Assembly: GCA_045648885.1 (NCBI GenBank)
Contig: JAZROV010000002.1
Span: 94,628 to 158,627, forward strand
Length of the DNA stretch: 64,000 nt
Reading direction: 5' to 3'
Source: Candidatus Enterousia sp.
GTDB taxonomy: Bacteria > Pseudomonadota > Alphaproteobacteria > Rs-D84
Of this stretch, positions 5,301 through 11,903 are shown piece after piece. Position numbers and translations under genes: made by a program. Each line of letters begins with the position of its first letter. Position 1 is the first letter of the stretch. The notes under the pieces were generated by a model. It made no database searches, was not told the origin of the DNA, and was given only the letters and a program-made list of their open reading frames with translations.

Positions 5301-6189
5301 TCACGAAATGATAAATAATAAAACAATAAAAAATACTTTGTCGCATATCAATTTTATCGCAGATAAAGATATTGGTGAAATCAAACAAAAAGCGTCTATG
5401 TTGATTACTGATTTTTCCAGCATGTGTTTCGATTTTATGATAAAAGATAAACCTGTTGTTTTCTTCCACATAGATGCAGGTGATGAACTTTGTAAATTAT
5501 CGCCAGATAGTTATGAAAATGATTTAAATGTCGAATCTAAAAATGACGAACTTTATAATGTCTTTTACGATGTTGATGGTGTTTTAAATTCGATTGAATA
5601 TTATTTAAAACATAATTTTGAATTGGAAAAAGATAAAAAAGATAAACATTCAAAATTTTTCGCATATCAGCAAGATATTCGTCAACATATTATTGATGGT
5701 TTATTAAAATCGCCAGATAATATCTATAATGATGTTTTTCAATATGATTTATCTGATTTACCAGCGCTGCAATATGATACACAAATTATTTTCAATAATG
5801 ATATGCCTATGCATGTATATGGTTTAGCTGGCGCTGAACCATGGGGATGTTGGAGTGTTGATAAAAAATGCGCGATGGCTTTTAAATTACCAAATGAAAG
5901 TGAGGTTGTTTTGAAATTTGATTGTTCTGGATATGTCAATGATTTGCATCGAAATTTAATTGTAGATGTGTTTACTAATAATAAACGAAAAACACAATGG
6001 AAATTCAGATATGGCAAAACATTTAATGCACCAGAAATTAAAATTACTAAGCAAGATTGTGACGACAATAATATATGCAAAATCTATTTCGTTGTACGTA
6101 ATGCTAAATCTCCATATAAACTTGGCATCAGTAATGATAAGCGTTCTTTGGGAATCGGATTTAAGTCTTTGATAATTCATAAGTGTTAA
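2362..6189 (+). CDS. multidomain glycopolymer synthase: GT4 + GT2 + TagF-like CDP-glycerol/ribitol phosphotransferase + conserved C-terminal module
   Basis: 1275-aa ORF whose start overlaps the upstream stop by 4 nt (ATGA). GT4 motif [21 protein letters not shown]. GT2 region [44 protein letters not shown] with DxD at CLNSDDF. TagB/TagF-like region ending [21 protein letters not shown]. C-terminal module PWGCW ... [21 protein letters not shown]. Confidence 0.6.
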   Translation: [1275 protein letters not shown]

Positions 6190-6210
6190 TAAAAAGGCAG
6201 TGGTGAAATC

Positions 6211-7176
6211 ATGAAAAAACAAACAAACAATTTAAGTAAAAAAACTGAGCATGTTGAAAATGTTCTGTATTTAGCGAATCAGAACGAAATTGAAAAGTTT
6301 TTTTCTGAATATGGTCAATATCATGGGCTTAGTCGGTATGATATCAACAGATTGGTTAACAATAATTTTCTTGGAATTCCATTAAATGAAGCTATTGAGT
6401 TGGGTGCAAAATTGGAACGGCCAGAATGGAAACAAGAATATTTTGATATTTTATTAAATAATCATATCTATTCAAAAAAACAAAATTTTTCAGTTATTGG
6501 TAATAGTATGCCTTTTGTGAAAAAATATTATTTGTTTGATTTATTGCTGTTGATGAAAACGAAGTTGAAATATGGTATTAAACGTTATTTGTTATTTGGC
6601 TTTTTGCCTTTGATTCGTATCAGGTATCAAGACAATAAATTAAAAGATATTTTATTGTTGTCTGTGATACCGTTTTTTTCCAATACATATGATAGTATTC
6701 GTTTGTTCGGTATACCGGTGTTTTTTAAACAAAAACTGAACGAAACTTATATTCCGATTAAACCGGGCTTTTACAGCACTGCTAGGATGTTAAAGTTTGT
6801 CTTGAAAGGGATGTTTGCTTGTGAAGCATGGGGTGCGTGGTCGCGTGGTGATTCGACATCTTTTTTATTAAAAACCGATGATAAATATATTGCAGAATTT
6901 GATGTGAAACCTTTTTGGGCCAAAGGTAAAGAAAAACAAATCGTGACAGTTTATCTGAATGGTCACAGAAAAAATAAATATGTTTTTGAAGCAGGACAAA
7001 AAATTCCAAAAATCAGTCTTGTTTTGCCTAAATCAGAAAGATTGCACATAATGTTTAAATATACAGATGTAAAATCACCAAAGGATTTAGGGTTATCTGC
7101 AGATGGACGCAAAATCACGATAGGGTTTAAATCGTTAGAAGTAAAAAATATCATGGACGAGAAACATAAATGTTAA
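6211..7176 (+). CDS. paralogous accessory protein sharing a linker region and the C-terminal module with the upstream polymerase
   Basis: 321 aa. The N-terminal segment (GQYHGLSRYDINRLV...AIELGAKLERPEWKQEYFDIL) aligns with residues about 620-690 of the 1275-aa protein. The C-terminus EAWGAWS...SPKDLGLSADGRKITIGFKSLEV is the conserved module. It carries LLFGFLPLIRIRY and IRLFGIPVFFKQK repeats. Confidence 0.5.
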   Translation: MKKQTNNLSKKTEHVENVLYLANQNEIEKFFSEYGQYHGLSRYDINRLVNNNFLGIPLNEAIELGAKLERPEWKQEYFDILLNNHIYSKKQNFSVIGNSMPFVKKYYLFDLLLLMKTKLKYGIKRYLLFGFLPLIRIRYQDNKLKDILLLSVIPFFSNTYDSIRLFGIPVFFKQKLNETYIPIKPGFYSTARMLKFVLKGMFACEAWGAWSRGDSTSFLLKTDDKYIAEFDVKPFWAKGKEKQIVTVYLNGHRKNKYVFEAGQKIPKISLVLPKSERLHIMFKYTDVKSPKDLGLSADGRKITIGFKSLEVKNIMDEKHKC

Positions 7177-10743: not shown

Positions 10744-10776
10744 AACTGCATACGTTTGGCGTATGCAGTTTTTTTA
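10744..10776 (+). terminator. rho-independent terminator
   Basis: ctgcatacgtttggcgtatgcag hairpin followed by a T-run. Confidence 0.6.
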
Positions 10777-10832
10777 TATAAATCTTGATTGTATACATTT
10801 ATTTTTGTATGCTAAATCTAAAGTTATAATTA

Positions 10833-11903
10833 TTGGATAATGTAATTATGAAAAAAAAGTTATTATTTCTTGTTTTGGGGTTCATATTCGTTTTGACGAT
10901 ACTGTTATTTTTTGTGTTTGTCGAAACAAAACAAGCTGGTCCAGAAGATTTAATCATATATTTTAATAAAAATGGGAATATATCTGAATATAAAACAACA
11001 GGTTTTTCACATCCGGAAACAGACAGAACGTGGACCGATGGGCGAACAGCATCTATTGTTGTTCCATATAATAAAGTTCAAGATTATTTTGTGCGTGCCA
11101 CGTTTGATATCAACCCATTTTTGACTAAGAAAATAAAAAAACAAACTGTTAATGTTTTGGTAAACGATAAATTTGTAACAAAGTGGAATATTAGTAAGGC
11201 CGGAACTTATGCATTTGATTTGCCTGTTGATTTTGAAACAGATGATAATAAGATGACTATTAAATTTGAAATTCCTGATGCAAAAAGCCCTAAAGAATTA
11301 AAACTATCGTCTGATGCCCGTAAATTAGGCTTGGGAATGAAAAGATTAGTTTTATCGCAAGTTAGTCAAGAAAATCCGAATAATTACAAACATTATCATA
11401 TTGGCGACAGAATATATTTTAATGCTGGTGGAAATTCCAAACTTTATACTGGCACTGGTTGGTCATCGCAAGAAAAAGATTTTACTTGGACCGATGGAAA
11501 TGATGCTTATTTGAATTTATTTATAGAAGATGCGTTGGATAAAAAATTACAACTGAATATTTTTGGATACGGAATTTTTGAACAATCAGATGAATGTCAA
11601 AAGGTAACAGTATATGCAAATAATTCAGAATTAACAACATGGTGTTTGTCATGCCAAGACGATAATTATGCGGTTGAAATACCAGAAACAGTAATTGGTT
11701 ATGGAGCGGTTCAAATTAGATTACATATAGAAAAACCATTCGTTGCAAAACCAGATCCCAGACATTTAGGAGCGGCTGTGAAAAATGTTTATATTTCACA
11801 AGTGTTTGCAGCAAAAACAAAAGTTAAAATAGCGCGTTGGATAAAAAATAAAGTTTTGAAATCGTCTGATGCTAAGCCATCGCCCGATGCACCGATTGAA
11901 TGA
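10833..11903 (+). CDS. membrane-anchored protein with two tandem copies of the conserved C-terminal module
   Basis: N-terminal TM helix LLFLVLGFIFVLTILLFFVFV. Copy 1 is TDRTWTDGRTAS...SPKELKLSSDARKLGLGMKRLVLSQV. Copy 2 is KDFTWTDGNDAY...DPRHLGAAVKNVYISQV. Confidence 0.5.
   Translation: MDNVIMKKKLLFLVLGFIFVLTILLFFVFVETKQAGPEDLIIYFNKNGNISEYKTTGFSHPETDRTWTDGRTASIVVPYNKVQDYFVRATFDINPFLTKKIKKQTVNVLVNDKFVTKWNISKAGTYAFDLPVDFETDDNKMTIKFEIPDAKSPKELKLSSDARKLGLGMKRLVLSQVSQENPNNYKHYHIGDRIYFNAGGNSKLYTGTGWSSQEKDFTWTDGNDAYLNLFIEDALDKKLQLNIFGYGIFEQSDECQKVTVYANNSELTTWCLSCQDDNYAVEIPETVIGYGAVQIRLHIEKPFVAKPDPRHLGAAVKNVYISQVFAAKTKVKIARWIKNKVLKSSDAKPSPDAPIE

Follow-up and report, generated by a model that had tools for sequence, protein, structure and literature searches.

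We analysed a window of 64,000 nucleotides from Candidatus Enterousia sp. (contig JAZROV010000002.1 of assembly GCA_045648885.1, positions 94,628 to 158,627 of the forward strand) and found in it five homologous copies of one protein domain, carried by four proteins, here called B, C, D and G, of a surface-polysaccharide gene cluster. The domain is Pfam family PF22895 (DUF7024, a domain of unknown function, DUF), which is catalogued but uncharacterised, and not a new module. It is a non-catalytic accessory, repeatedly fused to enzymes of glycan pathways, and we propose, with about as much confidence as doubt, that it is a binding domain that would tether its host to the glycan acceptor. A preliminary description of this DNA had placed the module at the same five positions (two of them in G), had named its conserved motifs and had judged it non-catalytic, all of which our analysis confirmed. 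Its word 'novel' did not survive the match to a named Pfam family, the very outcome against which it had set its claim, although that family is itself a DUF, and in annotation the label 'novel module' should become DUF7024. The copies, with their scores against PF22895 and against leave-one-out hidden Markov models (HMMs), are:

5779..6186, + strand: module copy 1, C-terminus of B (aa 1140-1275), PF22895 26.6 bits, leave-one-out HMM 65.6 bits
6763..7173, + strand: module copy 2, C-terminus of C (aa 185-321), PF22895 14.4 bits, leave-one-out HMM 75.7 bits
7551..7958, + strand: module copy 3, internal in D (aa 128-263), PF22895 23.2 bits, leave-one-out HMM 57.4 bits
10950..11372, + strand: module copy 4 (G1), G aa 40-180, PF22895 23.8 bits, leave-one-out HMM 69.2 bits
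11385..11807, + strand: module copy 5 (G2), G aa 185-325, diverged, recognised by a profile-profile match and by the sandwich in an AlphaFold2 (AF2) model

The module spans about 135 residues, rather than the 120 or so first given for it, and nine columns of its alignment, among them columns of G, E, W, N, D and R, are invariant in all five copies. A BLASTP search within a small local database aligned the B, C, D and G1 modules pairwise with 23-31% identity over 92-151 residues (E-values of 5e-12 to 8e-07). With leave-one-out HMMs, for which 1000 composition-matched shuffles of each target served as control, the same four modules scored 57.4-75.7 bits against shuffle maxima of 8.4-12.2 bits (8.5 for B). 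G2 lacks 7 residues of the SPxxLGxS loop and scored 10.6 bits with a profile built from B, C and D only (shuffle maximum 5.2), rising to 26.5 bits once G1 was added. That it is a true fifth copy was settled by profile-profile comparison with hhalign, in which the G2 family matched the G1 family with 99.8% probability (E-value 2.8e-30, 131 columns) and the enzyme-fused modules with 97.9% (E-value 3.5e-13). Significant alignment of the segments, on which the preliminary description had staked its grouping, was therefore obtained by BLASTP, by leave-one-out HMMs and, for G2, by hhalign. No sixth copy was found in the 64-kb window.

Assignment to PF22895, whose curated gathering cut-off is 24.4 bits, rests directly on the B copy (26.6 bits); the best scores of G (23.8) and D (23.2) fall just under the cut-off and that of C (14.4) far under it, and these copies belong to the family because they are homologous to the copy in B. 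PF22895 is also listed in the precomputed annotation of orthologues. To gauge the extent of the family, we built a profile of the module from 27 sequences (A3) and ran it on 1.84 billion representative proteins clustered at 50% identity, yielding 12,109 clusters at an E-value threshold of 1e-3 and 5,092 at 1e-10. The signature 'W-G-x-W ... SPxxLGxSxDxRxLG' is thus the hallmark of a large catalogued family. Matching proteins commonly carry 2-7 tandem copies, pairs being the commonest arrangement. Among 49 sampled matches with E-values below 1e-40, a Sulfatase domain of the LtaS/OpgB type was present in 18, PF22895 in 15 (best E-value 1.9e-17), ALGX in four, and GT8, GT4 and PMT_2 in one each, and Phosphodiest and YidC domains were likewise seen (GT, glycosyltransferase). 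Ten family representatives bear the names 'sulfatase-like hydrolase/transferase' or 'hypothetical' in their source records. A search of a word-indexed database of 5.8 billion proteins with the five-module alignment returned nothing at an E-value of 1e-3 or better, and neither NCBIfam nor PHROGs returned a family for C or G.

The best-known member is E. coli OpgB (phosphoglycerol transferase I, MdoB), residues 616-759 of which match PF22895 with 220 bits. Its sequence contains the motifs that had first drawn attention to the module (FSGISRPESWGRWS ... SPRKLGIGMVEIKV), and the A3 profile aligns with OpgB 642-760 in register, at GISRPESWGRWS and SPRKLGIG, in an HMM alignment that covers the whole domain. 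Sequence similarity is remote at this distance (A3 scores about 12 bits on OpgB), and hhalign of A3 against the OpgB domain gave 92.8% with an E-value of 4e-7 over the N-terminal 54 columns. The window modules are homologous to the OpgB C-terminal domain, and the two are also linked, transitively, through thousands of intermediates. No mention of DUF7024 was found in the literature searched, and an OpgB-related paper has no word on the function of the OpgB C-terminal domain.

The fold of the module is predicted to be a jelly-roll beta-sandwich of nine strands, like that of carbohydrate-binding modules (CBMs), without a close solved relative. Modelled alone with AF2, the C module reached a predicted local distance difference test score (pLDDT) of 88 and a predicted template-modelling score (pTM) of 0.82, with nine strands in a beta-sandwich; the model of G (pLDDT 87) contains two similar beta-sandwiches at residues 40-178 and 186-323. 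Structure searches with the module matched soluble sugar-binding modules, and Foldseek with full-length G gave BcsB and tandem malectin-like ectodomains as best matches. In its modelled fold the module thus has the jelly roll of a CAZy-type CBM; membership in an established CBM family was not indicated, there being no Pfam CBM match and no significant sequence match in the PDB.

The four hosts lie among seven open reading frames (ORFs) that occupy positions 41-11903 of the window, with domains as assigned by Pfam:

41-2365, + strand: ORF A, 774 aa, two GT4 domains
2362-6189, + strand: ORF B, 1275 aa, GT4, GT2 and TagF-like Glyphos_transf domains
6211-7176, + strand: ORF C, 321 aa, without a catalytic domain
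7170-8807, + strand: ORF D, 545 aa, FkbM methyltransferase at the C-terminus
9188-10378, + strand: ORF E, 396 aa, Mtd_N, a phage tail-fibre N-terminal domain
10388-10735, + strand: ORF F, 115 aa, no family match
10833-11903, + strand: ORF G, 356 aa, transmembrane (TM) helix at the N-terminus

The module had been credited to four adjacent proteins, and four hosts there are, but the module-free E and F separate D from G. Downstream (3') of A-G lie a helix-turn-helix (HTH) gene, DUF374-lpxK-lpxC, type IV pilus or type II secretion system genes, gyrB and other housekeeping genes, and the G+C content of the GT block (window 1-12000) is 28-33%, against 35-43% in the remaining window. The A-G locus is a variable GT (surface-polysaccharide) cluster beside lpxK/lpxC in a Ca. 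Enterousia-like uncultured gut alphaproteobacterium.

Protein B combines GT4 (88.7 bits), GT2 (91 bits) and Glyphos_transf (PF04464, 62 bits, aa 764-1103) domains, and this fusion of Glyphos_transf to GT domains makes it a TagF-like multi-domain polymerase. Protein D carries Methyltransf_21 (57 bits, aa 385-521), the FkbM methyltransferase domain; its order is an LFG motif, a stretch of about 100 aa (a coiled coil by eye, with a weak CCDC47 match at aa 26-139), DUF7024 and the methyltransferase. According to Pfam, the Sulfatase domain is absent from B, C, D and G, although DUF7024 typically stands C-terminal to a periplasmic domain of the sulfatase/LtaS type, and the window hosts (TagF-like polymerase, FkbM methyltransferase, apparently headless adaptor) are in part unusual architectures within the family. 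Two further sequence elements accompany the module:

4153..4356 and 6265..6468, + strand: 'GQYH' segment, B aa 598-665 and C aa 19-86 (BLASTP)
~950-1120, + strand: LFG..P..IK repeats in A, aa 304-360 (regular expression, by eye)
4460-4570, + strand: LFG..P..IK repeats in B, aa ~700-735 (regular expression, by eye)
6517..6765, + strand: hydrophobic repeats of ~20 aa, x-Y-x-L-F-G-x-x-P-x-x-x-I-K, in C, aa ~103-185 (regular expression, by eye)
7206-7245, + strand: LFG..P..IK motif in D, aa 13-25 (regular expression, by eye)

The 'GQYH' segment (GQYHxL...P(L/I)xxAIxLGAKLE..EW) is 42.6% identical between B and C over 68 aa (BLASTP E-value 1.4e-15) and follows a GT2 domain in the related protein P0038 as well. 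LFG..P..IK repeats lie upstream of the module in B, C and D, immediately so in C, and occur in P0037 and P0038 too; they have no Pfam match and may be a membrane-association or oligomerisation element. Because the C module groups with modules of GT2 tails, and because the 'GQYH' segment follows GT2 in P0038, C looks like a GT2 'tail' that lacks its catalytic head.

The module copies lie on both sides of the inner membrane. None of B, C and D has a TM segment, and GT4, GT2, TagF-like and FkbM domains need nucleotide-sugars, CDP-glycerol or S-adenosylmethionine (SAM); since B and D depend on such substrates and have no membrane span, their place of work is the cytoplasm. The same holds for P0110, in which GT4 and GT8 are combined with two modules and which likewise has no TM segment. 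The sole hydrophobic segment among proteins A-G is the N-terminal helix of G, which bears out the single membrane anchor first described for this protein; the helices that flank its two modules are:

10854..10922, + strand: signal-anchor TM helix of G, ~aa 8-30, preceded by MKKK (AF2 helix at residues 2-29)
11802..11855, + strand: basic amphipathic C-terminal helix of G, aa 324-341, FAAKTKxKxAxWxKNKVL (AF2 helix at 324-341)

Judging from the sequence, translation of G probably starts at the ATG at 10848 and not at the listed TTG at 10833, because the closest orthologue, P0001, begins at the corresponding MKKKL. The lysine-rich N-terminus before the helix points to an N-in orientation, and in the orthologues P0027 and P0028 lipoboxes (LSGC/LFGC) replace the TM anchor, so we place the G modules outside the cytoplasm. 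The periplasmic-or-cytoplasmic question that the preliminary description had left to a topology check is thereby answered in favour of the periplasmic (extracytoplasmic) side, by either route of attachment. Copies behind sulfatase, AlgX and GT-C domains in other family members are likewise extracytoplasmic, and the DUF7024 family works on both faces of the inner membrane. A suitable label for G is periplasmic tandem-DUF7024 membrane protein, not a new family.

Relatives of the locus were followed through G, for which we found 35 full-length homologs of the same architecture in metagenome-assembled genomes named Candidatus Enterousia sp. and Alphaproteobacteria bacterium UBA1218. Each G orthologue has two module copies, and the C-terminal amphipathic helix is kept across 32 G-family sequences. 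In most of these loci the G orthologue is the last gene of a variable GT cluster that begins with GDP-sugar dehydratase/epimerase genes and sometimes includes Stealth, GT4 and cytidylyltransferase genes; in four the cluster adjoins DUF374-lpxK-lpxC. G is 45-50% identical to its orthologues and the neighbouring LpxK, LpxC and DUF374 are 64-85% identical to theirs, so that G evolves faster, as would be expected if its partner is a variable glycan. The loci of seven relatives have the module on GT2 proteins (~500 aa), on repeat proteins of ~206 aa, on DUF1796 proteins (~350 aa) and on GT8, the ~206-aa repeats-plus-module protein standing directly 3' of a GT2 with a closely related module. When 36 module copies were clustered, they grouped by host protein and not by genome (51-61% identity within multi-genome clusters, 16-29% between), the C module joining the modules of GT2 tails and ~206-aa proteins at ~54% identity. 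Grouping by host across genomes identifies the copies as old paralogs without concerted evolution, and we rejected recent duplication or concerted evolution as their origin.

Across this locus and its relatives, the domain therefore occurs on at least six types of host protein from a single pathway, of which four have catalytic domains that can be recognised, and on a dedicated periplasmic protein, which narrows its plausible functions to tethering, either to a substrate or to the membrane. In this lineage single copies have become attached to cytoplasmic enzymes of the cluster (in relatives to GT2, GT8 and DUF1796 proteins). Under the substrate-tethering proposal, the module on B, C and D would keep its host, on the cytoplasmic side, close to the membrane-linked sugar chain while this is being made, raising the local acceptor concentration or processivity as the SH3b domain of Bcs3 does. 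On G, the two copies would hold the same chain at the periplasmic face after export, in the manner of the BcsB tandem domains or the AlgX CBM, and the conserved G-x-S-x-x-E-x-x-x-x-W and D-x-R-x-L-G residues would make up the structural core or else the site of binding. We infer the glycan-binding role from the CBM-like fold and from the association of the family with glycan-modifying enzymes, and the predicted jelly roll and this enzymatic company also support the suggestion, made at the outset, of a carbohydrate- or carrier-binding domain. A more far-reaching version strikes us as quite improbable, namely that the module sits by design on every cytoplasmic tailoring or polymerising enzyme of the cluster and, in tandem, on the conserved periplasmic anchor protein, so that one glycan is 'read' by the same kind of domain on either side of its export, as a hand-off or quality control.

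Several observations weigh against glycan tethering. No binding by any DUF7024 domain is documented in the literature searched, and neither of two module profiles found a solved relative by sequence in the PDB, the best matches (LecB and uncharacterised proteins, E-values of 0.07-0.08) being insignificant. The conserved residues are common to the whole superfamily, whose members have very different substrates, which argues for a structural and not a glycan-specific role. Finally, neither the 64-kb window nor the ~10 kb upstream of the relatives' loci showed export genes, a ligase or an initiating transferase that would point to the pathway and, with it, to the common substrate of B, C, D and G.

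The same superfamily-wide conservation of a few residues would fit a universal ligand, and an alternative that we hold to be possible but rather unlikely is that the module docks its host onto the bilayer, through phospholipid headgroups or the lipid of a carrier or of lipid A-core, at either face of the inner membrane. Every host enzyme class acts at the membrane interface, including the GT-C, YidC-fused and peripheral GT hosts, and the donor of OpgB/LtaS-type enzymes is itself a phospholipid. In B, C and D, hydrophobic LFG..P..IK repeats stand ahead of the module, next to it or farther off, a basic amphipathic helix ends G, and three modules (B, C and G1) are basic (isoelectric points, pI, of 9.25-9.68). 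Those of D (pI 4.8) and G2 (pI 5.1), however, are acidic, which weakens the case for membrane binding by charge alone; by fold, the module matches soluble sugar-binding modules, and arrays of up to 6-7 tandem copies are more typical of avidity for a polymer. Docking also sits poorly with the reported proteolysis of OpgB, whose soluble product in the periplasm is said to move phosphoglycerol between glucose residues of osmoregulated periplasmic glucans (OPGs), the source being silent on whether DUF7024 is retained in that form.

Self-association of the module is a less promising explanation still, and we regard it as improbable: the B, C and D copies would assemble a cytoplasmic multi-enzyme complex with C as a pure adaptor, and tandem copies elsewhere would reflect the same self-association. 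The composition of C invites this idea, as it has no catalytic domain and is made up only of the linker segment that B has too, of LFG repeats and of the module; so do the retention in relatives of the ~206-aa protein right after a GT2 with a close module and the prevalence of tandem pairs as the most frequent arrangement. Yet in most of the family the tandem copies belong to one enzyme, for which no partner is evident, and between hosts the modules share just 16-29% identity without co-variation by genome. Moreover, the membrane separates the G copies from the B, C and D copies, so G cannot serve these proteins as a platform and a module-to-module scaffold between G and the enzymes is implausible. 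The 'assembly scaffold' of the preliminary description, with G as its membrane platform, is disfavoured by this topology, and G as a cytoplasmic scaffold for B, C and D was rejected on the evidence of the lysine-rich N-terminus before the TM helix and of the two lipoboxes. To chance or low-complexity likeness in an AT-rich, lysine-rich genome, for which only the G+C content of 28-33% and the modest pairwise identities of 23-31% speak, we give practically no credence, since leave-one-out scores of 57-76 bits against at most 12 bits in shuffles, hhalign E-values down to 1e-30, confident AF2 folds and thousands of database homologs exclude it.

Some features of the surroundings were recorded alongside. 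E has an Mtd_N score of 55 bits, its residues 1-85 match the Bordetella phage Mtd in the PDB, and it also matches PHROG tail protein 9648; together with the small, acidic F, this phage tail-fibre-like protein is located within the polysaccharide cluster and not in a prophage. The gene order E-F-G is kept in relatives L001, L002, L006, L007 and L010 and absent in L005 and L008. L010 is the JGI contig Ga0452075_0057923, to which the window is 99.4% identical. Comparison of window 8828-9060 with L010 12601-13476 revealed a 614-bp deletion in the window that affects a WcbI-family gene, of which the N-terminal ~214 aa are deleted and the last 77 codons remain, and L010 has ~3.1 kb of additional sequence (a methyltransferase and a peptidase M55) between the HTH gene and DUF374. 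Almost all genes of the window are on the + strand, and its GC skew is positive nearly everywhere. At 55880-57460, 57491-59071 and 59132-60712, three successive + strand ORFs of exactly 526 aa each look like a tandem triplication; the first encodes an AMP-binding enzyme of the acyl/aryl-CoA ligase type.

With over 12,000 clusters at 50% identity, E. coli OpgB included, DUF7024 is a very widespread domain, yet it has no assigned function, and the locus offers defined constructs that make it useful as a system for assigning one. If the module does act as an acceptor-glycan tether, that function would extend to the whole 12,000-cluster family, OpgB included, and the reading of one glycan on both membrane faces, if true, would be a previously undescribed principle of substrate hand-off or quality control in envelope glycan assembly.

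Among systems with comparable domains, the jelly-roll CBMs (CBM6/35/22/36/61) and the AlgX CBM share the predicted fold of the module but no significant sequence similarity was found to any solved CBM, and as far as sequence tests reach DUF7024 is not a member of a CAZy CBM family. A precedent for CBM-type domains that function at the cytoplasmic face is the C-terminal CBM of Wzt, the O-antigen ABC transporter, a cytoplasmic jelly roll that recognises the capped terminus of a lipid-linked glycan; it was not among the top structural matches of the module. Protein D, with its possible coiled coil, module and methyltransferase, recalls chain terminators such as WbdD, the coiled-coil 'ruler' of ABC-transporter-dependent O-antigen systems, although no Wzm/Wzt transporter was found in the window.

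G resembles BcsB, a membrane-anchored periplasmic protein whose two jelly-roll carbohydrate-binding domains guide nascent polysaccharide and which was the best Foldseek match to full-length G (E-value 4e-10), with TM-scores (template-modelling scores) of just 0.24. Unlike BcsB, G is without flavodoxin-like domains, has its anchor at the N-terminus instead of the C-terminus and is half the size, and neither BcsA nor another synthase was found in the window. The resemblance is confined to the tandem jelly rolls, G being made of a TM helix, two sandwiches and an amphipathic helix.

B can be compared with Bcs3 of H. influenzae type b (PMC10299916), by analogy only, in that both are TagF-like multi-enzyme polymerases with a small non-catalytic C-terminal beta domain. 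In Bcs3, the clearest precedent for the proposed tether, the polymer is bound by this SH3b domain at a distance of 20-40 Å from the active sites, and activity is lost in truncations that disrupt the domain (PMC10299916). The two domains are not homologous, SH3b being a six-strand barrel and the B module a nine-strand jelly roll. Bcs3 is also part of a group 2 capsule (Kps ABC-transporter) system, whereas at the B locus kps-type genes (group 2 KpsMT/KpsED/KpsCS) were found neither in the 64-kb window nor, in relatives, in the ~10 kb upstream.

OpgB is the known protein whose likeness extends to homology, the motifs GxSxPExWGxWS and (S/D)xRKLGIG being common to both domains, and there too the domain sits on an enzyme that decorates an envelope glycan. 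The arrangement differs, in that OpgB has one periplasmic copy behind a sulfatase-type domain, whereas in the window cytoplasmic GT, TagF-like and FkbM enzymes bear single copies, and a tandem pair that is fused to no enzyme has a membrane anchor.

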